In this document: positions 11,246 to 62,245 of the stretch, piece after piece
How the letters are laid out: every line of letters begins with the position of its first letter
How positions within the stretch are numbered: the stretch's first letter is position 1
Notes under the pieces: generated by a model
The model's database searches: none
What the model saw: the letters and a program-made list of their open reading frames with translations, nothing else
What the model was told of the DNA's origin: nothing
DNA from: Candidatus Micrarchaeota archaeon
Lineage (GTDB): Archaea; B1Sed10-29; B47-G15
Direction of reading: 5' to 3'
DNA: 64,000 nucleotides
Assembly: GCA_003660975.1 (NCBI GenBank)
Contig: QMVG01000004.1
Span: 1-64,000, forward strand
Translations under genes and position numbers: made by a program

Positions 11246-11270
11246 ATTCACACCACAACTAAAAACAGAA

Positions 11271-11352: not shown

Positions 11353-11370
11353 TGCAGAATAGTTTTGTAT

Positions 11371-12060: not shown

Positions 12061-12064
12061 TTAA

Positions 12065-12775: not shown

Positions 12776-12787
12776 AAAACCACCTTT

Positions 12788-13063: not shown

Positions 13064-13201
13064 AAATATTATGCAAAGACCTGCTTAAAAAGATTTTTCA
13101 CTGAAGATGTGTATTGTCAATTCACGTGTAAATTACTCACTTTTGCATTCTAAGATAACTATAAATATCAGAATAGCGTAATAAATACGAGGTGACTGCT
13201 T

Positions 13202-14287: not shown

Positions 14288-14337
14288 ACCACCTATTTTT
14301 TGATTTTTCACAAATGCTTAGCTTTATTCATGTCGCC

Positions 14338-16169: not shown

Positions 16170-16175
16170 AGTGCA

Positions 16176-16760: not shown

Positions 16761-16791
16761 ATCACCACTTTAATTATTGCTTACAACATTA

Positions 16792-17682
16792 TTAAAGCAT
16801 TCTCATGGCGTTTTTCATGGACAGTATTGGGATTTTATACGACATAATATACTGCTCATAGTATGCATTTCTTGGCAAGACAACGACGCGAAAATCTTTG
16901 CTAAGCCCTTCTCTTATTAGGTGGTTTCCAGATGTGAACTCATAACTGAATATGCCGCTCCCTTCGCTGACTGTTATGATATAAAAAAAGCAGGCGTCAG
17001 GCGAAATCACTGCTATGTGGCTGCCAATGGGCATTTCTTTTAATTTTGACAGCTTTTTGTGAATTTGCTCAGCAGCCTCTCTAATGCCAAGCGCTCTGAT
17101 ACTGTTAATCCTGGCTCTTTTTTTGGAATTTTTGGCCTTAATATAAATCCTATTGTCAATCACATCAAAGTATTTTGCAGAAAAGCCAGCCTTATTTACA
17201 ACCTCTTCTATGTTTAAGATGTCTCCTTTTTTCTCGTCAATGAACGGCACTGCAAAATCCATTGAGAAACTAATTAAAATCTCTTTTATCTGCTTTAAAT
17301 TTTTCATTTGAATTAGGTGCTTCTTCCACGATGACAAGCTGTCCTGCAATATCACGGCCTTACTATATTTTATTTCCCTGTCCTCTTCACTTATGGTTTC
17401 ACTTATGAAACAGTGGGCTGTTCCTTCCCGTATCGTATGAAACAGATAAGCCAGCTCCTCCTTTGCGTATTCAAGAGCGCTGTAAAAGGTCTGTATGTCA
17501 TCATAGGGGGATACAATGGCTTTAACAGCTACTGGCAGGCCTTCCTCTCTTGCAGCGCCGGATATGTACAAAGCCAGAGGCAAAACATTATTTCCTATAA
17601 CAAGTACAGCCTCCATTGGCTTTAGGTCAAGCAGCCTATAACTGTCCTCAAATACTGTCATATCTTTGTTTAAGTAGCTCAA
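16792..17682 (-). CDS. Hypothetical protein
   Basis: 296-aa ORF, no motif recognised. Confidence 0.6.
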   Translation of the reverse strand: MSYLNKDMTVFEDSYRLLDLKPMEAVLVIGNNVLPLALYISGAAREEGLPVAVKAIVSPYDDIQTFYSALEYAKEELAYLFHTIREGTAHCFISETISEEDREIKYSKAVILQDSLSSWKKHLIQMKNLKQIKEILISFSMDFAVPFIDEKKGDILNIEEVVNKAGFSAKYFDVIDNRIYIKAKNSKKRARINSIRALGIREAAEQIHKKLSKLKEMPIGSHIAVISPDACFFYIITVSEGSGIFSYEFTSGNHLIREGLSKDFRVVVLPRNAYYEQYIMSYKIPILSMKNAMRML

Positions 17683-17776
17683 GTTATTAAGATTTCTGTC
17701 AGGTTAGCAGTAATTTGCACTTCCAATAGTTTTTTATATTAAAAATACATTTAGCATTTATGTTAAAGGTGCGTTT

Positions 17777-18013
17777 ATGGTTGTTAGGGTTTCTCAAATG
17801 TACGGTCTTGAAATCTACGACACAGATGGCTCTTACATAGGTAAGGCATATGATTTAATCCTCAATCTGGAGAAAGGAGAAGTTGTTAGAATAACTACCG
17901 AGCCTTTGGGAAAGATAAAATCCCCAGAGAAAATAGAGGAAATTATAAAAAGAAAGAGCATACTCTTTTCTAGGGTTAGGAACATAAAAGACATCATTGT
18001 AGTTAATAAATAA
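17777..18013 (+). CDS. PRC-barrel protein (possibly CdpB-like division factor)
   Basis: VSQMYGLEIYDTDGSYIGKAYDLIL...VRNIKDIIVV. Confidence 0.85.
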   Translation: MVVRVSQMYGLEIYDTDGSYIGKAYDLILNLEKGEVVRITTEPLGKIKSPEKIEEIIKRKSILFSRVRNIKDIIVVNK

Positions 18014-18035
18014 AAATATAGAAATAGTAAAAGGT

Positions 18036-18761
18036 TTATCTCTTCCTCTTTCTCTTGTACGTCTCTACCTTGCCAAACATGTCGTCAAAGAATGCCTGAT
18101 GCTTTCTTGCTGCTGACGCTATGGCATCTTTAAGCCCATAGCCAAATGCCAGGGCAAGTCCAACTCCAAATGCTATAGCTGCTGCACCAAAGAAGAGCTC
18201 AAACGCTCTTGTTAGTATTGTCACGTCAACGCCTGGCAGTATCAAAGGCAATGCTAATACCAGTGCTATGTACGCGAAGAATATCTGTATTATCACTGCG
18301 ATCACGCCAGTGAATGGCAGTTCTTTTGTCTTGGTTATAAGAGCTCCTATGTAATCAGCCAGCAATATCGCCACTAGGATTACAAGCATTCCCTCAACAA
18401 GGCTTGGGATATAAGCTACTATTCCCACCAGTATCTCTGCCAGCACTGCTATTTGGACATAGTCCGCTGCTGCGCCTAAGAACGCTAGAATAACAAAGAC
18501 ATTCACCAGGAATGTCACTAAGCGCGTGAACGTGAAGTCACCTATTATCCTCTTTATTCCGTGTGCTGCTAATAGCTGCTCCACTTTTAGTTCTTTGAAC
18601 AGTTTCTCTATGATATAGTTTATGACCTTTGCCACTGCATATCCGACAATGAAAAACACTGCTACTACTAGGATTGCTACCAGTGCATCCACTGCATCTA
18701 CTGCAAGGCTGTATAGTGGTTCAGGCAAACTTGCGAATATTGAGGCTCCCAAACTGGCCAT
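18036..18761 (-). CDS. Conserved TM-helix repeat protein (CmpX/MscS-associated)
   Basis: Hydrophobic; YIPSLV, GLALAFGYGLKD motifs. Confidence 0.75.
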   Translation of the reverse strand: MASLGASIFASLPEPLYSLAVDAVDALVAILVVAVFFIVGYAVAKVINYIIEKLFKELKVEQLLAAHGIKRIIGDFTFTRLVTFLVNVFVILAFLGAAADYVQIAVLAEILVGIVAYIPSLVEGMLVILVAILLADYIGALITKTKELPFTGVIAVIIQIFFAYIALVLALPLILPGVDVTILTRAFELFFGAAAIAFGVGLALAFGYGLKDAIASAARKHQAFFDDMFGKVETYKRKRKR

Positions 18762-18894
18762 CTATTCACCTCCGAAATGAGAGAAATCAGAACTTATTTA
18801 TAAATATTTCTAAAATGACTTACATTATTCCGTTATATGTCGTAATTTGCTAATCTTTTTATTATTCTCTTGTGTTAGATATGTGGTGATATTA

Positions 18895-19290
18895 ATGACA
18901 GAGGATAAGAGAAAAGCAACAGAGGATATGCATGAAAATACTGATGATGAGGAACTTGATAAGACGCTAAACCTTCCTTTTCCTAATGCAACACTTGTAA
19001 GGTTAATGAAACAACACATATCTCCAAATAAAATGATAAAGAAAGAAGTGAAGATTGCCATGAATAGGTTTTTAGGTGATATAGTTAGAGAGGTTTCAGA
19101 GAAGATGAATGAATACCCATATGCAATGATTGATTACAGGATGTTTGAGGAGGCAATAAGACCATACAAGTTGGTGAAGGAAATGGACAGAGAAAAAGAG
19201 AGGCTTATGCACCATCTTGACACGATAGTACAAGACTGCCTTTCAATAAAGAGAGACTTAGATAATAAATTTGGTTCTTCAGAGCTGTGA
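18895..19290 (+). CDS. Histone-fold (NFYB/HMF-like) protein with extensions
   Basis: LPFPNATLVRLMK...KMIKKEVK...AMIDYRMFEEAI; GGTGA RBS. Confidence 0.75.
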   Translation: MTEDKRKATEDMHENTDDEELDKTLNLPFPNATLVRLMKQHISPNKMIKKEVKIAMNRFLGDIVREVSEKMNEYPYAMIDYRMFEEAIRPYKLVKEMDREKERLMHHLDTIVQDCLSIKRDLDNKFGSSEL

Positions 19291-19755
19291 GCTGTGTAGT
19301 AAGCTCCTTTCCTTCTTGCTCAGTATGAGACCAGTTTCAGCACTTGCCTTAACAGTTAGTACTGCCAAAGCATCGCTTATAAAATTGAATGCCCAAATGT
19401 GAGTATCTTCCTCTATGCTTAGTGTTGCTATTAACTGATTGAAGCGCTTTGCAGGGATTTCAGCAAATGCCTTTTCAAACAGTTCTTCCTCCCAAAAACC
19501 AAGCTTTGAACTGTCTATGAAACCAGAAGGGCTTTTAATTGCTTCTGAGCCCTTGCTAAGCTCGACGCTGCCTTCATTTACTGAGCAGGCCACAACCTCA
19601 TTGGATTCAGGGTTGTAGTATGACAATATCCATTCGCTTGGGATAAAAGGAAGTTTTGATATGCCAACACAGGAGCTAAGTGCAAAACCCTCAGACATAA
19701 TCTTTCTCACAGCGTCTGAGTTTTCAGCTTTTTTTATCGCTTCTTTTGCGTTCAT
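19279..19755 (-). CDS. Hypothetical protein (PepSY-like repeats possible)
   Basis: W-x-L-x-Y and W-x-F-x-F...VxAETGxI pattern. Confidence 0.6.
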   Translation of the reverse strand: MNAKEAIKKAENSDAVRKIMSEGFALSSCVGISKLPFIPSEWILSYYNPESNEVVACSVNEGSVELSKGSEAIKSPSGFIDSSKLGFWEEELFEKAFAEIPAKRFNQLIATLSIEEDTHIWAFNFISDALAVLTVKASAETGLILSKKERSLLHSSQL

Positions 19756-19804
19756 TTTCCCACCGAGGTGATATTTTTATATGCTTTCATCTATTAATAA
19801 GCCC

Positions 19805-21661
19805 ATGGTTGATAAAGAATTGGAAGAAGAGATAAAGGTAATAGGACTTACCAAATATCTAATAAACTTGCCTTCTCCAAAGCTGACAGTTTTCCTAATA
19901 TTGGCTGTTTCCTTCATAGCTTCTCTTCTCGGCTACTGTGCTATGCTGGGCTGTTCTGATATTGTTGCCAATCTTCCGAATATCTTGTTTTTAGCTCTCC
20001 TTTACTTGGCCACACCCGCATTTTTTTCATCAATAATCAACACTATGGCCTCACGGTTCAGCAGAAAAGAGATAATACTCAAAAGGTCTCTTTTTCTCTC
20101 ATTTTTTGGTTTGCTCATTGTTTCATCACTTTTTGTGATTGCCTGCCTGTTTTCCTCTTTCTTCAACGGAAAGTACTTCTATGATATAATGATATTCGCA
20201 TATACCATAGTACTTGCTGAGCAGGTCTTTATCATAATGGTAACACACCCCTACAATATGTTGCAGACAGTTATGGTTTCTCTTGTTTATCCCCTGATAG
20301 GCATACTGGTAATGAAGCCAGTTAAGTTCCTTTCATTGCTTCCTATGGAGATAGCAGCTGTAAATCCCATAACCATCCTGTTAAAATTCTCCATAGCCAC
20401 AACCGTTGTTCTTCTGGGCATATGGCTTTTCGTTTACGTGGTAAATGCCCCAATGAAAAGGAACTTCAATGTAAAGTCCATAGAAATGGCAAAGCTCTTC
20501 CTAGGCCATTGGTATGACTATTCAAGTGCTATAGAGGATAAACTCAAACAGATGGGAACAAAAGCAAAGACATGGATAGGCATACTCTCTTTTAAGAAAG
20601 GAAGTAAATTGAAAGTATTGCTCGTAACTCCCTACCTCCACCCAGGTCCCTTTGGAGAAGTTGGCGGCTCTAAGCTTAGCAAAATCTTTTCGGACACTTT
20701 AGAGGAGGAGACAGGGGCGAATGTCATAGTCACTCATGGCACAGTAACCTTTGATCTGAATCCCCTAACTACTGATTCCCTGTATCATAGCTGTGAACAG
20801 GTTTTAGAGGAGATTCCTAAGATAAAATATAGTAAATCGGCGTCAGCAATGATACGGTGCAGAGACGGAGATCTACAGATGTCTGGCCAGCTTTTTGGTA
20901 ATACTGTTTTTATGACATCAACGTTAAGTCCAAAACCCACAGAGGACATTGACTTTGCTGTTGGCGTAGCAGCTATGAATGAATTGAAGGAGAGCTTTCC
21001 AAATGCCATATATGCTGACTGCCACAATTGCTACCACAACGCAGGAGATTATGCCATCCTATCAGCCAACCCGAAGTTCTTCAACATCCTGAATGCTGCT
21101 AGAAAGCTGGGCAAATTACTGAAAAGAGAGAAGAAAAGGAAAATAAAGGCAGGTTATGCGCATGACCCAATGAGCAATTACTCATTAGAAGAAGGGATAG
21201 GGCCAACAGGCTTAAGGGTTCTTGTACTTAGTGTTGGCGGTATCAAAAACGCTTACATAATTTTTGATGCCAACAACATGGAGGTTGGTTTAAGGGATCG
21301 GATTATAGAGGCAGTTAGGAAGCTCGGCATAGATGATGCAGAGGTTATGACAACAGATTCACATATAGTAAATAATCTCAGAGGTGTCGAGAACCCTCTG
21401 GGCATGAAGATAGACACAGACGAGATTGTTAACCATGTTGTTGATACTGTTAGACGAGCATTGAATGACTTGGAAGAGGTTGAAGTTGGAGGCAAAACAG
21501 TAGAAGTTTCTGATATAGATGTTTTTGGTCCCCAAAAAGCAGCGGAGATTGTTGCCACCATAGACTCATTAGTTTCTGTGATGAAGATTGTGGGGCCCAT
21601 TATTTTCATTTCTTCCTTATTTTTGGCATTTGTACTGCAGACATCTGTTATTGGGTGGTGA
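19805..21661 (+). CDS. DUF2070 family membrane protein
   Basis: N-terminal TMs; HPGPFGEVGGS, DCHN, DANNM, TTDSH. Confidence 0.88.
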   Translation: MVDKELEEEIKVIGLTKYLINLPSPKLTVFLILAVSFIASLLGYCAMLGCSDIVANLPNILFLALLYLATPAFFSSIINTMASRFSRKEIILKRSLFLSFFGLLIVSSLFVIACLFSSFFNGKYFYDIMIFAYTIVLAEQVFIIMVTHPYNMLQTVMVSLVYPLIGILVMKPVKFLSLLPMEIAAVNPITILLKFSIATTVVLLGIWLFVYVVNAPMKRNFNVKSIEMAKLFLGHWYDYSSAIEDKLKQMGTKAKTWIGILSFKKGSKLKVLLVTPYLHPGPFGEVGGSKLSKIFSDTLEEETGANVIVTHGTVTFDLNPLTTDSLYHSCEQVLEEIPKIKYSKSASAMIRCRDGDLQMSGQLFGNTVFMTSTLSPKPTEDIDFAVGVAAMNELKESFPNAIYADCHNCYHNAGDYAILSANPKFFNILNAARKLGKLLKREKKRKIKAGYAHDPMSNYSLEEGIGPTGLRVLVLSVGGIKNAYIIFDANNMEVGLRDRIIEAVRKLGIDDAEVMTTDSHIVNNLRGVENPLGMKIDTDEIVNHVVDTVRRALNDLEEVEVGGKTVEVSDIDVFGPQKAAEIVATIDSLVSVMKIVGPIIFISSLFLAFVLQTSVIGW

Positions 21662-28632: not shown

Positions 28633-29883
28633 TTAGAGGAAAAGCGTTATAATGCCAAGAACTATTGCAGCCCCAGCTAATAGGATTAATATCTTTATTA
28701 CCTTTTCAGCCTCTTCTGTAGGAACTCCCAAGCCTCCCCCCAACTTGACCTTTGTTTTCTTTTCCTTCTTCTCCTTGCTTTCCTGCTTTATTCTTTTGAA
28801 GACTACCGGGGCCTCTCCTGTCTCTTTCTCTGCCTCCTTTTTCTTCGGAGCTTCCAGAGCTATGGCTTCCTCTTCTAAGTCCAAAGCCCTTTTTATCGCA
28901 GCTGGAACAAATTTTACTCCTCTGAGAGTGTCAACTTGGGCAGATAGGCCCATTTCCTTTAAGCGTTCATACTCTTCGTCAGTAATTGCTATTAGCTTGC
29001 CTTCCTGCACTTTCTTTGCCACCTGCTTCTCATAGTCTTTCTTCAGCATTATTGCCCTTGGCTTTTCCTCTTTTTCTTCCTTTTTTTCCTCTGAAATTTC
29101 AGCTTTCTTCTTTTTAGCTTTGGAGCTGATCTTCATAGGTCTTATGGTTCCTTTATCTCTCATCAATGCCAGGACGTCATCATAATACGCTTTACCCAGG
29201 GCCCTTTTTGAAGGTGGCAGTGGCAATCTTATTATGGCTTTGCTTCCAAGGGCTGTTTCTACCTCACCTTCGCTAACCTCAATGCCCTTTATCTCTTTGT
29301 GCTTCTCCAAGAACTCTCTGGCCTTTTCAGGTCTCACATACAGCTTTAAGTAGAGCTTCCCGTTTTTCTTGTATGCTATCTTGCTCGCAGCTCCCATCCA
29401 GTCCTCGCCCATAACGCTCTTTTTCAGCAGGTATCTGCTGTCCTCTGTTTCAAACTCCAACTTTGACCTTGACCTCTTTCTTGACCACTCCGAAGTACTT
29501 GACTTAAAGCGCTTGAACATGGCCCCAGTAGCATCTCCAAGGACGCCAAAGCGTTTTGCGATATCTCTTGTCGTGTATTTCCTTCCATCGCTTGTTTCAA
29601 CCACTAGCATTTCATTTCCCTTTTCCTTGATTGTTTTGGCTGTCTTCTCATCTATTTCCACCATTTTCCTTTCCTTCACCAGTTTTTCTGTCCACTTGTC
29701 AACTATTTTCTTTTTTTCTTCCTCTGAGGCTTTTTCAAACTTTTCTAAAAATCGCCCCAGCTCTGTCTTCTTTTCTTTTGCTTTGCTCTGCTTCCTGGCG
29801 GGATGTTTATCTGTGTTTCTTTCTTTCCTTTCTTCCATTATTTTATTTATTCCCTTGCCGAGAGCAGCTTTTTTAGGCATCAT
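28633..29883 (-). CDS. Lys/Glu-rich hypothetical protein with C-terminal TM anchor
   Basis: 416-aa ORF, GGTGA RBS, C-terminal hydrophobic helix. Confidence 0.7.
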   Translation of the reverse strand: MMPKKAALGKGINKIMEERKERNTDKHPARKQSKAKEKKTELGRFLEKFEKASEEEKKKIVDKWTEKLVKERKMVEIDEKTAKTIKEKGNEMLVVETSDGRKYTTRDIAKRFGVLGDATGAMFKRFKSSTSEWSRKRSRSKLEFETEDSRYLLKKSVMGEDWMGAASKIAYKKNGKLYLKLYVRPEKAREFLEKHKEIKGIEVSEGEVETALGSKAIIRLPLPPSKRALGKAYYDDVLALMRDKGTIRPMKISSKAKKKKAEISEEKKEEKEEKPRAIMLKKDYEKQVAKKVQEGKLIAITDEEYERLKEMGLSAQVDTLRGVKFVPAAIKRALDLEEEAIALEAPKKKEAEKETGEAPVVFKRIKQESKEKKEKKTKVKLGGGLGVPTEEAEKVIKILILLAGAAIVLGIITLFL

Positions 29884-30241: not shown

Positions 30242-33200
30242 TCAAACAATGTTGAAATCATCGTCCCTTGGTGCTTTTTTCTTCTTGCCTATTTTATAAG
30301 AAAACAATGTTTTCTCTTCGTCTGCCTCGTACTCTGCTAAAACCTTTCCTGACTTTGTCCTTATTTTTGGGGCAGCCTTCCTTTTTCTCTTTGGCAGTTT
30401 TGGAAGTGAAAAGCTTTTGAAAGGTGATTTCGAGGAAGCCTTGCTTATAGGATACTTACTTCTACCAAAGAGAGCCTTGATTTTGTTCAAAAATTCCTTT
30501 ACGCTGTCAAGCACGTCCATTAGCAAGGCCCTCTTAAAGAAGTACAGCAGCACGATTACTACTGCAAACGAAGCAATGCCCCCAGCTGCAACGTATATGG
30601 TGGAATCACCAGCTGCCTTTTCTTTCTGTGCAGGCGTGTAGCAGCTGCAGTCACTTATGTTTAACACCTGCTCTTCTGGACAGACGGTGTCCAGACACTT
30701 AAAGACGCATTCGCAGTTTTCATTGACCTCGTATCCTTCTGGGCACTCCACGTCGCAAGCTGCTGTTGTCTCTTCAATGCTTTCCGTGGATACAACAGAG
30801 GGTTGGCTTTCATCCATAAATTCATCCTTGTCTTCTACCAAGTTCACAGTGTAATTTACCTCTGCCTTTGATTTGGCTTTGACATCCAATGTCCACTCCA
30901 GCACAGGGTCGGCTTCAATCACTGTTGGCACGTTGTTGTCAAAAACAATATAACTAACATTGGGAGCTATGTCTTTCGGCACAGTCTCGCGTATCTTTGT
31001 TCTCTTTGTTGTGGAAAGAGGGTTGTAAACAGAGAGCGAGACGATTGTTTTATTGCTAGGAGTATCAAGGAAGTACCTTCTCACAGAAACCTTATTGCTC
31101 GGGCGCGGTTTCTCCTTAACCTCTATTGTTATCTCCTTATCAAAGTATATCTTATCCTTGTTGTTATTTGCCCCCCTTATAATCACAGTGTAATTGCCAG
31201 GTCTTGTGTATTCATCTGTCGTGTAATTAAATGAGTACTGCTTTACTTCTCCTCCGGATACAGAAACACTCCTTTTCCCTTGGAATACTTTTATTATATT
31301 ATAGTCCTGCTCAACAAAGATATAAACAGCCCTGCCTGTGCTTAGGGTGTTTTCTATTGTTAGAGAGATTGTCTTGTTTTTACCTGCTTCTGCCACCACC
31401 TTGCTTACGCCAACAGCAGATATGCCAGGCACTTGCTCAGAACCGCTGCTTTCACTGCTGCCAGCAGAGCTAGAACTGCTACCTGTGTTGTCATTCGTGC
31501 TTGACTCGCTTATGGTAAATTTATTTGTGAAGTTTTTGCTTCCAACAAGGCCCCAAACACCATCCACATCAACCATGGCATCATATGTTCCAGCATCAGG
31601 TATCGAGCAGCTGGTGAGTGTCTTTGAAGAGCTGCCGCTTATGCTTCCCGCGCATGCACTGTAACCTATTTCATAATAAACAGTGACTGTGCCATAGACA
31701 TAAGCATTAACAGAGGAGCCATTGCAACTTATGTTATATCTTATCCCACTAACTGTCGTGCTAAAGCTTTCTCCCTCCGTGGCTGAAGCAGATGACACGC
31801 TTCCTATGACAATATTGCTTTCCAATGTGCTGTTTCTGAGCACTGGAACCTTTGAGAGCTCGGTTATGCTTCCCTTCCTGCTCTGGTTATCTGTTAAGCT
31901 TATTGTAATATTATACAGGCCACCACCATTTACACCATTTACATCAAGCTGGCTTGCGTTAAACTCGCAGTACATGGACGTGCTGCTGTTGTCAAAAACT
32001 CTGCTTGTTATACTTTTCAATACTCCCTTTCTCCAGGACAGCGTGCAATTGCTCTTGTTGACCGTGTGCTGCAGGCTGCTCCATGAGATATATCCAAATG
32101 TCATGACCCTTGCCTTGAAGAAAACCTTTAACTTGGCATCTTTATCCCCAAGGTCCCCACTGTAGTATGTCTCTGTTATCTTTCCTGTGTCAGGCCCCAC
32201 ATAGCTTATATTCAGCATGGGCTCATAGAAGTATAAGATAACAGCATCTGAATAAGACTGGTTCTTTGATGACTTCACGCTTATGTTAACAGTTGTGTTC
32301 CCAGAATACGAGGATGAGACACTTATATTTACTGTGATGTTTTTACTTTCGCTTTTGTTTAACCGGATAGACACAGTGCTTGTGTTTGAGCTTAAACCAG
32401 CGCCAGGGCTTACTGACAGCGTATAGGAAGAAGCGTTATTTCCAACATTGCTCACAGTCAAAAGCACGGAAATATTTGCTTGGGGTATGCTGAAGTTTTT
32501 GTAGACCGTCTTGTTTGCAGAGACGCTAACATTGTACTCCTCCTTCATAGTAAGAGAAAATGAACTGCTGTTCGTGCTTGGATCGTAGCTTATTGGCAGC
32601 TTGTTAGAGCCACTCAAATAGCTGAAGTTCAGAAGCACGAGAGTGCTGTTTCCTCCGCCAATACTGCTGTTTAGGTGGCCATCCACGTAGAAATACCTTG
32701 AATTATGTGCCTGCAGTTCAAATGTTATACTGGTTCCCCAGCCACTGCTGTCGTTTAGGTAGATTGGCCAGTCATCCGTATTTCTTAACTCGACCGTTAC
32801 ATTGTAATTGACATTGCCTGTATTGTTTATTAAAACAGGGTGGTGTAGGTAGCCCATTGGCACATTGGCATTGTTGGCAGTTATGCTGACATTTGATTGT
32901 GCTCTCACATATACATTGATAACGGTACTCGTTCCTTGGTGTTTGTAGCTGTCATTTGCCTTTACTGTTATGTTATAGTACCCTGGGTGCTCTTTTGAGG
33001 TGTCCCAGTCATATGAACATGTTAAGTTCCATATATGAACGTTGTGTGAACAGTCCTCACTGGCGTCTATTAATTGCCAGCCAGTACCAAAGTTAATCAT
33101 TATCGTATCGTTAAGAAGATTATAATCACTCACTGTGAAGTTTACCTTGCTGCTTATGCCGGAGACATTGCTGCCATTGCCAGGTGCTGTTATGTTCACT

Positions 33201-34393
33201 GCTGGGGCATCATTGTCAATTGTGATGTTTGTTGTGTTGAACACTGGACCATTGCCTGCTTTGTCTTTTTTTACCCATATGCTTATATTGTAGCAGCCGT
33301 CGTCAAATTCAGTTGTGTCTATGGTTTTATAGAAAATATTGGCGCTGTCATTTGACATGTTAAGGTGAGAGCCGTAATTTGAGTAATAATATTGGTCGCT
33401 TGCATTATCGCATGGTGTTACATCCATCTGAACATTGTCTTCATTGCTTGGTAGCCCTGAGAGGTTTTCTGATATTCTCACAGTTACGTTATATGTTCCA
33501 TTTATGTGGCTGCCAGCAGTCGGCTGCTGGAAAATTATGATTGGGTCTTTGTTGTCAATGCCTATAAACCACGTTACGAATGCCCTATTGCTTGAAGCGT
33601 CCGTGACAGTTATATTAAAGTAATAACTGCCATCGCTAACACTCTGCGTGATTGGATATGCATTCCACTTTCCATTATTGTTGTCACCACTGTACCTGTT
33701 CATCCCAAAGCTTTGCAGTTCATCTGCAGGATTGCTGCCATTTGCGATGTAAAGCACTGCAGAGCTTATGCCGTAGCCCACATCAGTCAGGCTCACGTTT
33801 ACCGTGACTCCGTCTGATATATACGTGAAATTATTATACCAAACAGTTAGGTTGTATAGGGTTTGAGCATATGTCATAAACAGCGTGCCTGTGTTTATCT
33901 CTGGAGCTTTGGTGTCAAGGACATCTATGCTGAAGTTCTTGAACACAGACGAACCGTTCGTATCATAGTCAAAGTAGCTAAGGTTATAGTCGTGGTGATA
34001 TTCTCCTATGTAAACTTTGAACACCACTGTAACACTCTTATTTGGTGCCAATCCCAGCAAGGTGGTATTGCTGGATGCGTTTACAGTGCAGTTCATAGCA
34101 GGCATATCCCTGAACATTCCAATATCGCAGCTGACATTTTCACTGCTTGGGCCAGCCAGAAATTCAGAAAAATTACACTCATTTGGATTGCTGAAATTCG
34201 CCAATGTAAGGTTAAACTTAGTTATGTTATCATCAGAGCTTGCGTTATTCTCAATAGTGATTTGCAAGGTGTGAAATCCTGTGTCGTTTACAGTGCTTTG
34301 GTTTAGGGTTACAATAGCAACATGTGAAGATACGGTGCTTTGGGCTATAAAAACAAAAAAGAGAGCTATAAGGAAAATATACTTAATTTTCAT
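30242..34393 (-). CDS. Large cell-surface glycoprotein with Ig-like repeats
   Basis: Signal peptide, many N-x-S/T sequons, IDNxxP Ig-repeat linkers, Ser-rich linker, Cys-rich motif, TM helix, basic cytoplasmic tail. Confidence 0.8.
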   Translation of the reverse strand: MKIKYIFLIALFFVFIAQSTVSSHVAIVTLNQSTVNDTGFHTLQITIENNASSDDNITKFNLTLANFSNPNECNFSEFLAGPSSENVSCDIGMFRDMPAMNCTVNASSNTTLLGLAPNKSVTVVFKVYIGEYHHDYNLSYFDYDTNGSSVFKNFSIDVLDTKAPEINTGTLFMTYAQTLYNLTVWYNNFTYISDGVTVNVSLTDVGYGISSAVLYIANGSNPADELQSFGMNRYSGDNNNGKWNAYPITQSVSDGSYYFNITVTDASSNRAFVTWFIGIDNKDPIIIFQQPTAGSHINGTYNVTVRISENLSGLPSNEDNVQMDVTPCDNASDQYYYSNYGSHLNMSNDSANIFYKTIDTTEFDDGCYNISIWVKKDKAGNGPVFNTTNITIDNDAPAVNITAPGNGSNVSGISSKVNFTVSDYNLLNDTIMINFGTGWQLIDASEDCSHNVHIWNLTCSYDWDTSKEHPGYYNITVKANDSYKHQGTSTVINVYVRAQSNVSITANNANVPMGYLHHPVLINNTGNVNYNVTVELRNTDDWPIYLNDSSGWGTSITFELQAHNSRYFYVDGHLNSSIGGGNSTLVLLNFSYLSGSNKLPISYDPSTNSSSFSLTMKEEYNVSVSANKTVYKNFSIPQANISVLLTVSNVGNNASSYTLSVSPGAGLSSNTSTVSIRLNKSESKNITVNISVSSSYSGNTTVNISVKSSKNQSYSDAVILYFYEPMLNISYVGPDTGKITETYYSGDLGDKDAKLKVFFKARVMTFGYISWSSLQHTVNKSNCTLSWRKGVLKSITSRVFDNSSTSMYCEFNASQLDVNGVNGGGLYNITISLTDNQSRKGSITELSKVPVLRNSTLESNIVIGSVSSASATEGESFSTTVSGIRYNISCNGSSVNAYVYGTVTVYYEIGYSACAGSISGSSSKTLTSCSIPDAGTYDAMVDVDGVWGLVGSKNFTNKFTISESSTNDNTGSSSSSAGSSESSGSEQVPGISAVGVSKVVAEAGKNKTISLTIENTLSTGRAVYIFVEQDYNIIKVFQGKRSVSVSGGEVKQYSFNYTTDEYTRPGNYTVIIRGANNNKDKIYFDKEITIEVKEKPRPSNKVSVRRYFLDTPSNKTIVSLSVYNPLSTTKRTKIRETVPKDIAPNVSYIVFDNNVPTVIEADPVLEWTLDVKAKSKAEVNYTVNLVEDKDEFMDESQPSVVSTESIEETTAACDVECPEGYEVNENCECVFKCLDTVCPEEQVLNISDCSCYTPAQKEKAAGDSTIYVAAGGIASFAVVIVLLYFFKRALLMDVLDSVKEFLNKIKALFGRSKYPISKASSKSPFKSFSLPKLPKRKRKAAPKIRTKSGKVLAEYEADEEKTLFSYKIGKKKKAPRDDDFNIV

Positions 34394-52452: not shown

Positions 52453-52954
52453 TTTCTGGGATGAGGATGAGGAGTTCCTGCAGCGCAGCGATGGAAAATA
52501 TAGAAAACTGGTTAGCTGTATTGTTTACTGGGGCAATGCAGAGCAGTTTCTCTTGCTTCACAGGAAACTCAGGTGGCATGGTTATGAGTTTCCAAAAGGG
52601 GGGATAAAGAAAGGAGAGAGTTTGGAGGAAGCAGCCAGAAGAGAGCTGAGAGAGGAAGCAGGCATAGAAGACATAATTTCAATAAAAGACACGGGGATTG
52701 AGATTAAATACAAGTGGCCTCCTGAAATCGTGAAGCACCCAGGCAATAAGAACAAATACGATGGTGCAATACAACACTTTATGCTGGTAAAAGTTCCGTA
52801 CAAAAAAGCAGAGGTAAAGAGCGATGAGCACGATGGCCTTCTCTGGGCAAGAGCAAATGTTGTGGATGAGTACCTTGCTTTTGAAAACCTGAGACAGGCC
52901 TTTAGAAAAGCATTAAAAATGATAGCAGAGGTAAAAGATAATAGGCCCCAGTAG
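52445..52954 (+). CDS. NUDIX hydrolase
   Basis: Nudix box GGIKKGESLEEAARRELREEAG. Confidence 0.9.
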   Translation: MDDFWDEDEEFLQRSDGKYRKLVSCIVYWGNAEQFLLLHRKLRWHGYEFPKGGIKKGESLEEAARRELREEAGIEDIISIKDTGIEIKYKWPPEIVKHPGNKNKYDGAIQHFMLVKVPYKKAEVKSDEHDGLLWARANVVDEYLAFENLRQAFRKALKMIAEVKDNRPQ

Positions 52955-53059
52955 CTCAATGGCAGAGCGCTCGCCTCGTAGGCCTTTCAATGATGACTGC
53001 TAAAAAGCGCTGAGAGCCGAGAAAGCGAGAGGTTGAGGGTTCAAATCCCTCCTGGGGCT
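52945..53059 (+). tRNA. tRNA-Thr(CGT) with 43-nt intron (52981-53023)
   Basis: GCCCCAG/CTGGGGC acceptor, CTCGC/GCGAG stem, BHB with CTCG/CGAG central helix. Confidence 0.93.
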
Positions 53060-53087: not shown

Positions 53088-53222
53088 TCGCTTAATCTTC
53101 CACATCTATCCCAGAAAAAGGCTTTTTCCTTTTTGCTTAGCTTTTTCCACAGCTTTCCCAGAAAAAGGCATATTTTTATTTTCGCTTAAGCCTTTTCCAC
53201 ATCTATCCCAGAAAAAGGCTTA
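53088..53222 (+). repeat. Three REP-like palindromes behind tRNA-Thr
   Basis: Three units of GCTTA..TTCCACA....TCCCAGAAAAAGGC; best copy 53187-53222. Confidence 0.88.
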
Positions 53223-56377: not shown

Positions 56378-56461
56378 GCAGGGGTGCCGGAGTGGCCAAA
56401 CGGGATGGACTCAAGATCCATTGGCTTAGTGCCTTCGAGGGTTCGAATCCCTCCCCCTGCA
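56378..56461 (+). tRNA. tRNA-Leu(CAA)
   Basis: GCAGGGG/CCCCTGC acceptor, TGGA-CT-CAA-GA-TCCA arm, long variable arm. Confidence 0.96.
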
Positions 56462-56747
56462 CTAGGGACCGAAGGTCCCTATTGGGGGCTTCAGTTTCGC
56501 TTAAGCCTTTAACATCGGAATAACAGGAAAGGCTTAAATCCCTCCCCCTGCACTAAGCTTTTTCCTATGAAAACTGTGGAAAAAGCTTAAGCAAAAAAGA
56601 GGGGGAGGGAAGTTTTGATGAAACTTTTGCTAAAAGTTTCAATCCCTCCCCCTGCATTGCAACGCAGCTCGTTGCATCCGCAGGCGATCTTCGATCGCCT
56701 TTGCTTAAGCCTTTGACACAGAAAGGATAGGAAAGGCTTAAATCCCT
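56446..56747 (+). repeat. Tandem array of tRNA-Leu 3'-end copies separated by hairpin cassettes
   Basis: AATCCCTCCCCCTGCA at 56446, 56537 and 56641; truncated AATCCCT at 56741; inverted core GGGGGAGGGA at 56601. Confidence 0.88.
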
Positions 56748-56780
56748 GTGCTGTTAAAATACCAGTGAAGAGGTCAAGGC

Positions 56781-57041
56781 ATGAGGATTGAGAAGAAAAT
56801 ATGGCCGGAGTATTTTCAGAAAATAATTGATGGAGTCAAAACCTTTGAGTTAAGGCTGGCAGATTTTGAGTGCAGGCCTGGTGACATACTGGTTTTGAGG
56901 GAATGGGACCCAAGAACAAAAGAGTACACGGGCAGAGTTATTGAAAAGAAGGTCACTTACGTGGCCAAAAGCAAAGACATGAGGTCCTGGCCTGACGAGG
57001 ACATAAGGAAATATGGGTTTCTGGTTATTGGGTTTAAATGA
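56781..57041 (+). CDS. ASCH/PUA-like (DUF3850) protein
   Basis: KKIWPEYFQKIIDGVKTFELR, GDILVLREWD, YTGR. Confidence 0.88.
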   Translation: MRIEKKIWPEYFQKIIDGVKTFELRLADFECRPGDILVLREWDPRTKEYTGRVIEKKVTYVAKSKDMRSWPDEDIRKYGFLVIGFK

Positions 57042-57134
57042 GCGGCGGTTGATATGTTTTCAATGGTGGCCATATGATTAGATAATCGACAAACATGCGA
57101 ATCCTTTTTATATGTGAAAACAAGAAATAAAACG

Positions 57135-58895
57135 ATGCCATCCGAAACATACATTACGAAAACCTTGTCATTAAAACTCATTCCATCAGATGAAGAAAAG
57201 CAGGCGTTAGAAAACTATTTTATAACATTCCAGAGGGCCGTGAATTTTGCTATAGATAGAATAGTAGATATAAGAAGCTCCTTTAGATATCTAAACAAAA
57301 ATGAACAATTTCCAGCCGTGTGTGATTGCTGTGGTAAGAAAGAAAAGATAATGTATGTGAATATATCCAATAAAACCTTTAAGTTTAAACCATCAAGAAA
57401 TCAGAAGGATAGATACACGAAGGACATTTATACAATCAAGCCCAATGCCCACATATGTAAGACATGCTACAGTGGCGTTGCAGGAAATATGTTTATACGC
57501 AAACAAATGTATCCGAACGATAAAGAAGGGTGGAAAGTTTCGCGTTCATACAATATCAAAGTTAATGCCCCTGGACTGACTGGAACCGAATATGCTATGG
57601 CCATACGGAAGGCAATAAGTATATTAAGATCTTTTGAAAAGCGACGAAGAAATGCTGAAAGAAGAATCATAGAGTATGAAAAGTCCAAAAAAGAGTATTT
57701 AGAATTGATTGATGATGTTGAAAAAGGAAAGACAAATAAAATAGTGGTTCTTGAGAAAGAAGGCCATCAGCGAGTGAAAAGATATAAACACAAGAATTGG
57801 CCTGAGAAATGGCAAGGTATTTCTTTAAATAAAGCAAAAAGTAAGGTTAAAGATATTGAGAAAAGAATAAAAAAGCTCAAGGAGTGGAAACACCCTACAC
57901 TAAATCGACCATATGTCGAGTTACACAAAAATAATGTTAGGATAGTGGGTTATGAAACAGTGGAACTTAAATTAGGAAACAAAATGTACACCATACATTT
58001 TGCTAGCATATCTAATTTACGAAAACCATTTAGAAAACAAAAGAAAAAGTCCATAGAATATCTGAAACATCTCCTAACCCTAGCGTTAAAAAGAAATCTT
58101 GAAACATACCCCAGCATAATAAAAAGAGGTAAGAATTTCTTTTTGCAGTATCCTGTGCGAGTGACAGTTAAAGTGCCTAAGCTGACAAAAAATTTTAAAG
58201 CTTTTGGCATCGATAGAGGCGTAAATAGGCTTGCAGTAGGTTGTATAATCTCAAAAGATGGAAAACTTACCAATAAAAATATTTTTTTCTTCCATGGAAA
58301 GGAAGCGTGGGCCAAGGAAAACAGATACAAGAAGATTAGGGACAGATTATACGCTATGGCCAAGAAGTTGAGAGGAGATAAAACCAAGAAAATAAGGCTT
58401 TATCATGAGATTAGGAAGAAATTTAGACATAAAGTCAAATATTTCAGGAGAAACTATCTGCATAATATCTCTAAGCAAATTGTTGAGATTGCAAAGGAAA
58501 ATACACCGACTGTCATCGTATTAGAAGATTTACGGTACTTGAGAGAAAGGACATATAGAGGAAAAGGAAGAAGCAAAAAGGCGAAAAAAACAAATTATAA
58601 ATTAAATACTTTTACTTACAGAATGCTTATAGATATGATAAAATACAAGGCAGAAGAAGCGGGAGTTCCTGTAATGATTATTGACCCAAGAAACACATCA
58701 CGAAAATGTTCTAAGTGTGGTTATGTTGACGAAAATAATAGAAAACAAGCCTCGTTTAAGTGCCTTAAGTGTGGTTATAGTCTTAATGCAGACTTAAATG
58801 CAGCTGTCAATATAGCAAAAGCTTTTTATGAATGCCCCACGTTTAGATGGGAAGAAAAATTGCATGCATATGTTTGTTCAGAGCCCGATAAATAG
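57135..58895 (+). CDS. cas12f: Type V-F CRISPR effector Cas12f (Cas14b/Cas12f2-like), 586 aa
   Basis: RuvC-I FGIDRG, RuvC-II VLEDL, Zn ribbon CSKC/CLKC, RuvC-III NADLNAA, N-terminal CDCC..CKTC; adjacent tracrRNA, array and cas1/2/4; TATA ~25 nt before ATG 57135. Confidence 0.93.
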   Translation: MPSETYITKTLSLKLIPSDEEKQALENYFITFQRAVNFAIDRIVDIRSSFRYLNKNEQFPAVCDCCGKKEKIMYVNISNKTFKFKPSRNQKDRYTKDIYTIKPNAHICKTCYSGVAGNMFIRKQMYPNDKEGWKVSRSYNIKVNAPGLTGTEYAMAIRKAISILRSFEKRRRNAERRIIEYEKSKKEYLELIDDVEKGKTNKIVVLEKEGHQRVKRYKHKNWPEKWQGISLNKAKSKVKDIEKRIKKLKEWKHPTLNRPYVELHKNNVRIVGYETVELKLGNKMYTIHFASISNLRKPFRKQKKKSIEYLKHLLTLALKRNLETYPSIIKRGKNFFLQYPVRVTVKVPKLTKNFKAFGIDRGVNRLAVGCIISKDGKLTNKNIFFFHGKEAWAKENRYKKIRDRLYAMAKKLRGDKTKKIRLYHEIRKKFRHKVKYFRRNYLHNISKQIVEIAKENTPTVIVLEDLRYLRERTYRGKGRSKKAKKTNYKLNTFTYRMLIDMIKYKAEEAGVPVMIIDPRNTSRKCSKCGYVDENNRKQASFKCLKCGYSLNADLNAAVNIAKAFYECPTFRWEEKLHAYVCSEPDK

Positions 58896-58975
58896 CAAAT
58901 TTACTTATTCGGAGCCTGTTTAAGCCATTAGAAAAAGATAAATATTAAGAAGCACATAATTTATTTTGGTTACAT

Positions 58976-59146
58976 ATCACTGGATAATGAGAACAGCTGT
59001 AGATTAAGCTGTTTGATGTATTGTATTATGCTCCACTTTAATAAGTGGTGCCTTCCAAAGCTATATGCTGAGGGAGGATGGGCGCTGTTGCAGCGTCTGC
59101 CCACCTCAGAGTGGGTATCCTTACCTATTTTGAAAGGTTCTGTAAG
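58976..59146 (+). ncRNA. Cas12f tracrRNA (ends approximate)
   Basis: Anti-repeat TCCTTACCTATTTTGAAAGGTTCTGTAA (59118-59145); GTTGCA (59087-59092) complementary to the repeat 3' end; several hairpins. Confidence 0.85.
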
Positions 59147-59237
59147 TGTTTATAAATCCGATTGCAATTTTGCAACTTACCTATTTTTAAGTTTCAGATA
59201 TCTCGATAGACGCAGCAATACTCAAAAATTGTCTGCC

Positions 59238-60336
59238 ATTGCAGAACCCAAAGTAATAGGTCAAGGAATGCAACTGACTAAACAAAGTTTCGCTAAACTA
59301 GAAGAACAGGCCAATTGCAGAACCCAAAGTAATAGGTCAAGGAATGCAACTCAATATCAGACGCTTTATTCACTCTAGGAGCTACCCTTATTGCAGAACC
59401 CAAAGTAATAGGTCAAGGAATGCAACATTATATTTATTGTTATGTTATCATATCTCCCAAACAAAAGTATTGCAGAACCCAAAGTAATAGGTCAAGGAAT
59501 GCAACTAGGTGTTGTTAAGCGACACGGTTAGAAGGTAATCTTGATTATTGCAGAACCCAAAGTAATAGGTCAAGGAATGCAACTCGGCCTTTTTCCAGCC
59601 AAGGGCTTTTACTATTGCCCTATTGCAGAACCCAAAGTAATAGGTCAAGGAATGCAACCAAGCGAAAAGTATTTATATAACATAGGTTTGTTTCATTGCA
59701 GAACCCAAAGTAATAGGTCAAGGAATGCAACTATTCTTCCAAATTCAACACCTCCAAAATATTTATAATTGCAGAACCCAAAGTAATAGGTCAAGGAATG
59801 CAACTTGACAGCCAAGCTAGAAAGTTGTTAAACAGCTTTAATTGCAGAACCCAAAGTAATAGGTCAAGGAATGCAACTATGTTAAAATCGCTATCGGGCG
59901 TGGAAGGGGGTAGCGAATTGCAGAACCCAAAGTAATAGGTCAAGGAATGCAACCATAGTATCCCTGCGTTTGCTCTGCAACCGCAGGTTGTCTATTGCAG
60001 AACCCAAAGTAATAGGTCAAGGAATGCAACTCTGGATATCTGGTCCCTCCACGAAACCATCACCATCATTGCAGAACCCAAAGTAATAGGTCAAGGAATG
60101 CAACCACCTTTTGGTATAGCCCAGAAGCATCAAAAACATGTGAAAAATTGCAGAACCCAAAGTAATAGGTCAAGGAATGCAACTCTTTTTAGCTTTTCTC
60201 GGCAGTTTATACCACATATCCTTATTGCAGAACCCAAAGTAATAGGTCAAGGAATGCAACGGTAATGTCAGCCCATCTGACGCAACGGCATTTGAGACAA
60301 TTGCAGAACCCAAAGTAATAGGTCAAGGAATGCATG
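59238..60336 (+). CRISPR. CRISPR array: 15 repeats of 37 nt, 14 spacers of 36-42 nt
   Basis: Repeat ATTGCAGAACCCAAAGTAATAGGTCAAGGAATGCAAC; last copy ends TG instead of AC, so the leader is probably on the tracrRNA side. Confidence 0.99.
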
Positions 60337-60378
60337 AGAACCACATAATTTTTAAATTGCAGGTACTTATCATTTTTT

Positions 60379-61368
60379 ATGATTTTAGTGATAAACGATT
60401 TTTCAACATTCCTGGGGAAGAAAGGGGACCGTTTTGTAATTAAAAAGGAAAATAAGCGTGAAGAATTTTCTACAAATAACGTTGAACAAATCATAATTGC
60501 TGCAGTCTCATCTATCTCCTATGGAGCTATTCGATTGGCAATTAAACACTCTATTGATGTGGTTTTTTTAAGCAGAGGAGGTACTCCTTTAGGCAGGATA
60601 TACCCCTGTAAACTCGGTGGAACAACCTTAACGAGAAAAAAACAATTAGAGGCTTATTATTCAACAGTTGGTACAAACATCGTAAAAAATCTCGTTAAAG
60701 CAAAGATTATGAACCAAGCCTATTTTTTGAAGTCTTTAGAAAAAACAAGAAAAGATATTAATTTCACTTCTGAAATTAACAGCATTGTTAATATTGCTAA
60801 AAAGATTCCAGGTCTCACAGGTCTAATAGATGATATACGGGGAACTTTATTGGGATATGAAGGCATTGCAGCCAACAAATATTTTAGTTCCTTGTCTAAC
60901 ATACTACCATTTAAAGGAAGGGACAGAACAAGTAATGATTACGTAAATATTGTATTGAATTATGGATATGGTGTTCTGTACACGGAAGCAGAGAAAGCGT
61001 GTATTCTAGCAGGTCTTGATCCATATTTCGGTTTTTTGCACAAAGATAGGTACAACAAACCTTCAATGGTATTGGACCTTGTGGAAATATTTAGACCAAT
61101 CATAGTGGACAGGGCAGTTGTTACTTTGTTTTCCCAAAAACAGATAAATTCGAAGTGTTTTGAGAAAGAAACATATGGGGATGTTTTTTTAAGTAAAGAG
61201 GGTAGGGAAAAAATCTTATCTGCTCTTCTATCTCGCCTCAATCAGCAGATACGCTTTAAAGGTAAGAAAACAAGCTTTAAAAACATCATATTAGGAGAAA
61301 GCCGTTCTATAGCTCAATATGTTCTTGGTAATATACCAGAATATGAGCCGTTTGTTTATAGGTGGTAA
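60379..61368 (+). CDS. cas1: CRISPR integrase Cas1
   Basis: LLGYEGIAANKYF, LNYGYGVLY, GLDPYFGFLH, DLVEIFRP. Confidence 0.97.
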   Translation: MILVINDFSTFLGKKGDRFVIKKENKREEFSTNNVEQIIIAAVSSISYGAIRLAIKHSIDVVFLSRGGTPLGRIYPCKLGGTTLTRKKQLEAYYSTVGTNIVKNLVKAKIMNQAYFLKSLEKTRKDINFTSEINSIVNIAKKIPGLTGLIDDIRGTLLGYEGIAANKYFSSLSNILPFKGRDRTSNDYVNIVLNYGYGVLYTEAEKACILAGLDPYFGFLHKDRYNKPSMVLDLVEIFRPIIVDRAVVTLFSQKQINSKCFEKETYGDVFLSKEGREKILSALLSRLNQQIRFKGKKTSFKNIILGESRSIAQYVLGNIPEYEPFVYRW

Positions 61369-61370
61369 TT

Positions 61371-61655
61371 ATGATATATTGGGTGATTTATGACATCACA
61401 GACAATAAAGTTAGAAGCAAGGTTGCCGAGGAGTGCAAGAACTTGGGGTTACATCGAGTCCAAAAAAGTTCTTTTATTGGCATTCTCTCTAGAAATACAG
61501 CCGAGATGTTATATATTAAAATAGGGGATTTAATTGATAAAAGAGATTGTGTGTTCTTTATTCCACAATGTAACAAATGTTTTGCAGACAAACTTATTCT
61601 TGGCGATTTTGATGAAAGGACTGTAGAAGCAAAAGATTTCATCGTGGTGCAATGA
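61371..61655 (+). CDS. cas2: CRISPR-associated Cas2
   Basis: VIYDITDNKVR, RVQKSSF. Confidence 0.96.
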   Translation: MIYWVIYDITDNKVRSKVAEECKNLGLHRVQKSSFIGILSRNTAEMLYIKIGDLIDKRDCVFFIPQCNKCFADKLILGDFDERTVEAKDFIVVQ

Positions 61656-62245
61656 CAACGATGGATGGTTATTTAACTGCTAAGGATTTAATGAACTTTC
61701 ATTATTGTAAAAGATTAATATATTTTGAGAATGTATTGAAAATTAAACAAGCTACAACCACCAAAGAACTAAAAGGTCGCGCATTACACAACAGTTTTTC
61801 TGTATCATCAAAGAGAACCAAGATAATAAAGGAGTTTCCATATTGGCCTAAGATATATAATCTTAGATTAAAATCAGATTTTTTGCACCTTATAACTACA
61901 TTAGACTGCTTGATTATAAACCAAACAGATAATGAGGCATTTCCGCTGGAATACAAATATTCCAAAAAACCACGCAAGATTTATAAAACCATGAAATTGC
62001 AACTGTCTCTTCAAGCCCTTCTCGTAAATGAACTTTTACATTATAGTGTGAAGTTTGGTTTCATAAAGTTTTCCAAAGACAATTCTTTGGCCAAAGTAAG
62101 CATAACAGATAGAGATTTAGAAGAAGTGAGAACGACTATATCTGAGGTTAATACAATAGTAGAGAAGGAGATTTTACCTCCACCCACCGAATATAAAAAA
62201 AGATGTATTGACTGTTGCTATTTCAATATATGCAAAGGAATCTAA
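61652..62245 (+). CDS. cas4: CRISPR-associated Cas4
   Basis: YCKR, LDCL...PLEYK nuclease motif, C-terminal CIDCCYFNIC Fe-S cysteines. Confidence 0.94.
   Translation: MTTMDGYLTAKDLMNFHYCKRLIYFENVLKIKQATTTKELKGRALHNSFSVSSKRTKIIKEFPYWPKIYNLRLKSDFLHLITTLDCLIINQTDNEAFPLEYKYSKKPRKIYKTMKLQLSLQALLVNELLHYSVKFGFIKFSKDNSLAKVSITDRDLEEVRTTISEVNTIVEKEILPPPTEYKKRCIDCCYFNICKGI

Follow-up and report, generated by a model that had tools for sequence, protein, structure and literature searches.

A probable complete type V-F2 (Cas12f2/Cas14b) CRISPR-Cas locus in a small DPANN-type archaeal genome

Does a TnpB-like nuclease gene that stands in front of a CRISPR array serve as the effector of this array, or is it a transposon-type protein that merely shares its neighbourhood with parts of another system? 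This question is raised by a locus at positions 57135-62245 of the window, i.e. the whole stretch of 64,000 nucleotides (nt) of contig QMVG01000004.1 that was analyzed here (Candidatus Micrarchaeota archaeon, GCA_003660975.1, an assembly of 1.33 Mb in 130 contigs and 89.7% complete). On the plus strand a nuclease gene is followed by an intergenic region, the array and the CRISPR-associated (cas) genes cas1, cas2 and cas4, all of them in one direction (Table 1). In a first-pass annotation the locus had been called a type V-F system with its adaptation module. This call holds and can be sharpened to subtype V-F2 on the basis of the NCBIfam family NF049972, the Cas14b model of PADLOC and a phylogenetic tree. 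Very probably the locus is a type V-F2 CRISPR-Cas system that is complete and apparently functional, carried by a small archaeal genome of DPANN type. Its kind is already known: curated models recognize the effector, and the layout, described before as typical of Cas14/Cas12f, is the published one, as far as the available excerpts of Karvelis 2020 (PMC7229846) present it. Particular to this locus are the isolated sequence of the effector, its longer N-terminal zinc finger and the combination of a V-F1-like repeat with a V-F2 effector.

All four open reading frames (ORFs; effector, cas1, cas2 and cas4) are open, and no stop codon interrupts the frame of the effector, which ends at 58895 and could start either with GTG at 57114 (593 amino acids, aa) or with ATG at 57135 (586 aa). 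Judged from the sequence the ATG is the likelier start because the N-termini of the relatives align there and because the TATA-like element TTTTTATAT lies at a suitable distance upstream of it. With the usual spacing of archaeal promoters in mind, this element suggests a leaderless messenger RNA of cas12f2. The alignment used for this comparison comprises 22 rows, namely the window protein and 21 hand-picked long matches of at least 510 aa each. In these rows the RuvC residues D360 (within GIDRG) and E464 are invariant and D553 (within NADLNAA) is kept in at least 90%; the N-terminal zinc finger C63/C66/C108/C111 and the C-terminal TNB zinc finger C525/C528/C543/C546 are both conserved. The earlier description of a 586-aa TnpB-like protein with all three acidic RuvC motifs and two Cys4 sites is thus borne out. 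In the effector 42 residues separate one half of the N-terminal finger from the other, versus about 18 in most rows; of the 21 aligned relatives only one, the protein P0014, has these about 24 extra residues as well. Pfam recognizes the TNB domain (Cas12f1-like, 81.7 bits), while OrfB_IS605 scores 29.7 bits, just below its cut-off of 30.5. Cas12f1 works as a dimer; a dimer prediction with two copies of residues 1-345 of the effector gave a score of 0.00, which weighs neither way.

By its sequence the effector is a Cas12f2 (Cas14b) of subtype V-F2, since it passes the curated cut-off for Cas12f2, matches the Cas14b model over nearly its full length and falls in a corresponding clade of the tree. 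The NCBIfam family CRISPR_Cas12f2 (NF049972) matches with 501.7 bits at a cut-off of 450 and covers positions 2-523 of 524 of the model (501.5 bits in a six-frame search of the genome). The top match in PADLOC is an unnamed CAS-V-F effector model (228.4 bits), followed by the Cas14b model with 214.7 bits over positions 2-498 of 506; Cas14c reaches 24.8 bits, and Cas12g and Cas12b at most 55 bits. The NCBIfam model guided_TnpB scores 135 bits over residues 208-562. Among solved structures the best relative by sequence is 8j3r (E = 5.7e-20, residues 394-561). Similarity to Un1Cas12f1 (7l48, E = 6e-9) is confined to residues 329-562 in the C-terminal half, so the full-length similarity of a Cas12f1-type protein was not found. 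The 26 matched structure sequences include no chain named Cas12f2.

The tree was a quick IQ-TREE reconstruction with support from the SH-like approximate likelihood ratio test. Its 58 rows comprise the window protein, all 27 listed matches of at least 500 aa and the first 30 of 72 listed matches of 360-450 aa; the other 42 of the latter size, all matches below 360 aa and all of 451-499 aa were left out. The effector belongs to a clade that has 99% support and also contains P0014 and P0016; of its 21 rows, 20 have a length of at least 500 aa. Clustering with TnpB of IS605 or IS607 had been named beforehand as the outcome that would speak against a type V-F effector; a branch with 99% support parts the effector from the 28 TnpB-size rows in this tree, which holds no named Cas12f1 or Cas12f3 references. 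Membership in the IS200/IS605 TnpB family finds no backing elsewhere in the genome either: neither a Y1 TnpA nor a second TnpB-like ORF was found in the assembly (89.7% complete), and the 586 aa of the effector compare with about 350-450 aa in TnpB. An alternative view takes the nuclease for a TnpB, domesticated or ordinary, that stands beside an array and cas1-cas2-cas4 of another system, such as the type I/III system of contig C9 described below, and makes no use of the CRISPR RNAs (crRNAs) of this array. This view nevertheless draws on several observations. Pfam shows OrfB_IS605 and TNB domains only; the best solved relatives bear TnpB-like names (‘Transposase IS605 OrfB...’) and match only residues of about 394-561; and NCBI applies the label TnpB to the close relatives P0014 (from a metagenome-assembled genome of Candidatus Aenigmarchaeota) and P0164 (Hadesarchaea). 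Against it stand the score above the curated Cas12f2 cut-off and the grouping with long forms apart from TnpB-size proteins.

How close these relatives are was examined in two large collections. An exhaustive HMMER search in 1.84 billion cluster representatives returned 19 proteins at E < 1e-30; P0014 (560 aa) comes closest and shares 39% identity with the effector. A word-indexed search in 5.8 billion clusters revealed nothing between this level and the effector's own 90% cluster, therefore the effector is, among the sequences covered, without sampled close relatives. The cluster to which it belongs consists of its two start variants, of 586 and 593 aa, on two contigs that are found in NCBI, JGI/IMG, ENA, Logan and GEM. 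The Cas12f2 cut-off was passed by two of the ten closest relatives scanned (P0014 and P0016), the remaining eight scoring 296-401 bits.

Reportedly, the proteins Cas14b1-16 were catalogued by Harrington in 2018. There is some chance, clearly short of even, that the effector is one of these or one of the tested enzymes Mi1, Mi2 and Au of Karvelis 2020, and the caveat about novelty in the first-pass annotation stands: the Cas12f2 family has been characterized already and the effector may equal a catalogued protein. Its public presence in the databases named above on two contigs would fit with this, as would its length within the range of 422-603 aa of the tested set and its match to a curated model for which such proteins presumably served as the basis. 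The structural maintenance of chromosomes (SMC) protein of the window has its nearest named relatives in archaea labelled Candidatus Micrarchaeota or Diapherotrites archaeon (39-42% identity), then in Woesearchaeota, and these first labels also agree with an identity of this kind. No observation speaks directly against this identity; small trial seeds give their own seed members 770-1080 bits, well over the 502 of the effector here, which accordingly need not belong to the seed of the NCBI model.

The array that follows was recounted as 15 repeats with 14 unique spacers, in accordance with the first description, and is not attributable to chance. Fourteen repeats of ATTGCAGAACCCAAAGTAATAGGTCAAGGAATGCAAC are identical; only the last one (60300-60336), which adjoins cas1, differs at its final 2 nt. 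Because this degenerate repeat sits at the cas1 end, the leader is placed at the effector-proximal end. The spacers measure 36-42 nt (mean 38.9), and the best local score between any two of them is 10. Self-targeting is not seen: beyond the array, the assembly has no match of more than 18 nt to any of the 14 spacers. As a separate observation, 9 of the 14 spacers (59275-60299) begin with T (P = 0.010 in a binomial test that takes the T frequency as 0.31), which could be a base derived from the protospacer adjacent motif (PAM), a semi-conserved 38th position of the repeat, or chance.

The repeat itself links the array with effectors of the Cas12f type. In the available excerpt of a preprint (bioRxiv 10.1101/2022.10.20.513037) the engineered single-guide RNA (sgRNA) scaffold of Un1Cas12f1 ends in a 37-nt repeat part with the guide directly after it. 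With this printed repeat part the repeat here has 11 of its first 12 nt and all of its last 12 nt (AAGGAATGCAAC) in common. The earlier statement that the end of the repeat is typical of Cas12f is supported, the same end GGAATGCAAC being printed right before the guide in sgRNAs of Un1Cas12f1. Since this 3' end directly precedes the guide there, the plus strand is taken as the transcribed strand of the array. Repeat ends that are the same as those of a proven Cas12f crRNA, as far as these printed sequences go, argue against a TnpB that ignores the array.

A further argument comes from the 342 nt (58896-59237) between the effector gene and the array, for which a trans-activating CRISPR RNA (tracrRNA) had been proposed. 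At the level of sequence this proposal is supported by an anti-repeat duplex and a structured intergenic region, and the RNA remains a prediction, albeit a well-supported one. The reverse complement of the repeat aligns with the plus strand at 59118-59145, and the anti-repeat at 59115-59146 of the same strand is predicted to pair with the repeat from its position 1 to about position 32. The duplex has a predicted energy of -30.4 kcal/mol versus a mean of -18.7 (standard deviation 3.0, best -27.1) for 100 shuffled repeats; the best site on the minus strand reaches -17.1 kcal/mol. This significant anti-repeat between gene and array, on the strand of both, speaks against a TnpB that only borders on a foreign array. 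The intergenic region has a folding z-score of -4.14, and in the co-folding prediction three or four hairpins occupy 59033-59112, ahead of the anti-repeat. They include the stretch GTTGCA (59087-59092), the complement of the repeat's last 6 nt. By eye, without computation, a GGGC...GTTGCA...GCCC hairpin and a 3' ...TTCTG.A... segment that pairs with TTGCAGAA of the repeat both recall the Un1Cas12f1 scaffold in the form printed in the excerpt. The ends of the candidate RNA, about 58970 or 58990 and about 59146, are guesses from TATA-like boxes. Rfam contains no family that matches the intergenic region or the array, even at E values up to 10.

The three adaptation genes after the array were correctly placed by the first-pass annotation, as near full-length Pfam and NCBIfam matches demonstrate. 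The best solved relative of Cas1 is 4n06 (E = 1.1e-53), and the assembly contains no other Cas1. Cas4 has an N-terminal cysteine, the E-Y-K motif and a C-terminal cluster of cysteines. PADLOC likewise detects Cas1, Cas2 and Cas4 at nearly full length, with generic or ‘b’-type models as the best ones.

The same bin holds a second set of cas genes. On a contig here named C9, positions 556-19814 match Cas7/Cst2-DevR, Cmr1, Cmr6, Csx11 (603.7 bits), Cmr4, Cas5 and Cas3; after these genes, 70 repeats of a different 37-nt unit extend up to the contig end, and no cas1 is visible. The earlier statement that no other effector or transposase is present therefore applies to the window and, for TnpA and TnpB, to the whole assembly, but does not extend to this type I/III locus. 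In favour of a TnpB beside borrowed CRISPR components one can cite both the ‘b’-type fit of Cas1, Cas2 and Cas4 and the presence of a type I/III locus without visible cas1. The repeat of C9 is unrelated in sequence to the one here, and TnpA is absent from the assembly as described. Taking the family match, the tree, the anti-repeat and the repeat ends together, we regard this alternative as very improbable and prefer a Cas12f2 effector that uses the adjacent array. Two further repeat regions were encountered in the assembly. Contig C14 (28-400) carries, from near its first bases, a small array with at least 6 copies of a 30-nt repeat of the ATTTCAATCCC...TCTAAAC type. The 81-nt periodic repeats on contig C74 were considered as a CRISPR array and rejected, being tandem repeats that are imperfect and have no unique spacers.

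Table 1. Positions of the predicted elements of the type V-F2 locus and of the gene directly upstream
Feature	Position	Strand	Description	Basis
DUF3850/ASCH-domain protein	56781-57041	+	86 aa; directly upstream of cas12f2	Pfam
TATA-box-like TTTTTATAT	57105-57113	+	about 26 nt upstream of ATG 57135	read from sequence
cas12f2 (cas14b)	57135-58895	+	effector, 586 aa	ORF, Pfam, NCBIfam, PADLOC, alignment, tree
Candidate tracrRNA	58970-59148	+	both ends uncertain	anti-repeat, folding; Un1Cas12f1 scaffold compared by eye
Array leader (putative)	59149-59237	+	66% A+T over 59146-59237; TATA-like TTTATAAAT at 59149-59157	composition
CRISPR array	59238-60336	+	15 repeats of 37-nt ATTGCAGAACCCAAAGTAATAGGTCAAGGAATGCAAC, 14 unique spacers	repeat finding
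cas1	60379-61368	+	329 aa	Pfam Cas_Cas1 260.4 bits, positions 1-281 of 283; TIGR00287 275.8 bits
cas2	61362-61655	+	97 aa; start overlaps cas1 end by 7 nt	Pfam, NCBIfam, PADLOC
cas4	61652-62245	+	197 aa; start overlaps cas2 end by 4 nt	Pfam, NCBIfam; aligned to 8d3l Cas4

From these parts the following mode of action can be proposed. The array would be transcribed on the plus strand from the leader at its effector-proximal end, and in each crRNA the repeat would be retained as a 5' handle that has ...AAGGAATGCAAC at its end, with the spacer after it. A tracrRNA of about 160-180 nt, transcribed from between cas12f2 and the array, would use the anti-repeat at its 3' end to pair with three quarters of the repeat, counted from the 5' end, and the 586-aa Cas12f2 would bind the resulting dual RNA. 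New spacers would be inserted at the leader end by Cas1-Cas2, with Cas4 contributing PAM-aware trimming, as is established for the Cas1, Cas2 and Cas4 families. In interference, Cas12f2 would recognize a 5' T-rich PAM on double-stranded DNA and cut through its single RuvC site D360/E464/D553; this step is modelled on the three Cas12f2 enzymes tested in Karvelis 2020 (PMC7229846). According to the available excerpts of that work, these enzymes (Mi1, Mi2 and Au) use 5' T-rich PAMs (TTAT for Mi1), the cut falls just after protospacer position 21, and the Cas12f2 nuclease is the only endonuclease needed for cleavage.

Several points weigh against the interpretation as a complete and functional V-F2 system. 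No RNA run contains this stretch, so that the tracrRNA, its ends and the processing of crRNAs are predictions. The predicted tracrRNA structure is without covariation support, no homologous loci having been retrieved: a scan of genome contigs gave four loci, all matching the C-terminal part only, and a metagenome scan with a generic RuvC motif gave 80 loci, where the window's own protein is the sole long form among the best 40 ORFs (including those of 7 earlier loci) and the other 39 measure 243-476 aa from stop to stop. With only 39% identity to the nearest relative, the properties of the tested Cas12f2 enzymes may not transfer to this one. Because the best models of the adaptation proteins are generic or ‘b’-type and the C9 locus has no visible adaptation genes, cas1, cas2 and cas4 need not serve this array exclusively. 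Finally, no protospacer was found in the searches made, so that targets and PAM cannot be read from the spacers. Exact 24-mers (spacer nt 2-25) of 7 of the 14 spacers met no counterpart in viral contigs; the array has no match in phage records; among 31 genomes of the phylum it matched only itself and nothing in the other 30; and a pattern of the repeat ends was not found in viral contigs.

The latter results, together with the lack of RNA reads, would also be expected if the locus were intact in sequence and silent, or no longer acquiring spacers, be it after a recent transfer or as a fossil. In addition, the two DNA runs that contain the locus gave identical contigs and hence no visible turnover of spacers; these contigs are broken inside the array and no listed piece spans 59118-59322. 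On the other hand the four ORFs are open, the catalytic motifs are present, and of the 15 repeats only the leader-distal one is degenerate, while missing protospacers weigh little in view of the poor sampling of viruses of such archaea. A silent locus is consequently held to be improbable. The first-pass annotation had deduced an active system from 14 identical repeats and all-distinct spacers. Both observations are right and the word ‘active’ was an overstatement: the V-F2 system apparently is active in so far as its intactness indicates.

With respect to its origin, the locus is A+T-rich for its genome. Its G+C content is 0.353 compared with 0.418 +/- 0.047 for random 5.1-kb pieces of the assembly, and a value this low occurs in only 0.5% of 200 such pieces. 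In the 31 genomes of the phylum the Cas12f2 cut-off is passed once, by the window's own genome, and Cas1 is present in four. The locus lies about 670 nt downstream of a gene for transfer RNA (tRNA)-Leu, and relatives of the effector are spread patchily, with representatives in Aenigmarchaeota and Hadesarchaea and, in the literature, in Micrarchaeota and Aureabacteria. Because of this low G+C content, the occurrence of the family in a single one of the 31 genomes, the nearby tRNA-Leu gene and the patchy relatives, horizontal acquisition of the locus is probable. An integrated element bounded by copies of the tRNA-Leu 3' end was considered and rejected as no such copy exists to the right of cas4, either in the window or in the assembly.

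The vicinity of this tRNA-Leu(CAA) gene (region 56378-56780) shows a peculiarity of its own. After the gene there are two exact copies of its last 16 nt, at 56537-56552 and 56641-56656, inside an element that measures about 300 nt and is itself repeated: portions of it recur with 90-97% identity elsewhere in the assembly. Two of these portions directly adjoin copies of the 3' half of this tRNA (C4:504-576 and C1:55983-56126), and others lie on contigs C5 and C3. Such copies could be remnants of attachment (att) sites of integrative elements or a tRNA-linked miniature repeat. Further upstream a unit of about 50 nt is tandemly repeated in 2.6 copies (53098-53221), just downstream of a 115-nt and presumably intron-bearing tRNA (about 52945-53059); this unit shares the motif GCTTAAGCCTT with the element after tRNA-Leu. 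The window also contains an archaeal signal recognition particle RNA and long, presumably intron-bearing tRNAs, which mark it as archaeal; the relatives of its SMC protein point to a host of DPANN type. We know of no link between the DUF3850/ASCH-domain protein encoded in front of cas12f2 and the CRISPR system. Two ORFs on the minus strand, 30242-34393 (1383 aa) and 28633-29883 (416 aa), match no Pfam family at E <= 1e-5.

Among the groups of miniature Cas12f enzymes, Cas12f2 has been studied least. In the literature searched, functional work on it is limited to Karvelis 2020 (PMC7229846) and its preprint, and none of the titles listed names Cas12f2; among the abstracts listed, Cas14b is mentioned in that of a 2020 commentary on CRISPR-based nucleotide detection. 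The complete natural locus, with its plausible tracrRNA, clean array and adaptation genes, is a ready test case for the V-F2 guide RNA, the working stoichiometry of the nuclease and Cas4-assisted adaptation for a miniature effector. It also means that adaptive immunity is kept in a DPANN-type archaeon whose genome has a size of only about 1.3-1.5 Mb. The known workings of such systems are left unchanged by it, and it can be considered a fairly ordinary example of a known system.

Among known systems TnpB of IS200/IS605 with its omega-RNA shares the RuvC and zinc-ribbon core with the effector. The effector is about 150-200 aa longer at its N-terminus and belongs to a separate clade; moreover, array, anti-repeat and adaptation genes are found alongside it here, in a genome with no TnpA and no other copy. 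The closest known system is Cas12f2/Cas14b, represented by Mi1Cas12f2 (Cas14b4), Mi2Cas12f2 and AuCas12f2 in the available excerpts of PMC7229846. The two agree in size class, RuvC triad, both zinc fingers and the matches to the curated Cas12f2 and Cas14b models. According to the same excerpts they further agree in a putative tracrRNA between nuclease gene and array and in cas1, cas2 and cas4 within the locus, and the spacers of 36-42 nt here are similar to those of 33-39 nt used there. The differences lie in the effector, which reaches no more than 39% identity with the other cluster representatives and has its extra residues in the N-terminal finger in common with a single aligned relative.

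Un1Cas12f1 (Cas14a1, V-F1; 7l48 and 7c7l) resembles the present system in the 37-nt repeat with both its 12-nt ends, in the fold class of RuvC and TNB and, by eye and in the scaffold as printed, in the 3' anti-repeat and an internal TTGCA-containing hairpin of the tracrRNA. It differs in its protein, the similarity being weak and restricted to the C-terminal half, and in the middle 13 nt of the repeat. It is conceivable, albeit rather unlikely, that the effector founds a deep unsampled branch of Cas12f2 while its crRNA repeat has the two ends, and apparently also the tracrRNA contact sites, of Un1Cas12f1. If this were true, guide-RNA scaffolds and adaptation modules would be shared or exchangeable between V-F1 and V-F2 effectors, and this effector could have its own PAM or cleavage behaviour yet accept a scaffold type that has already been engineered.

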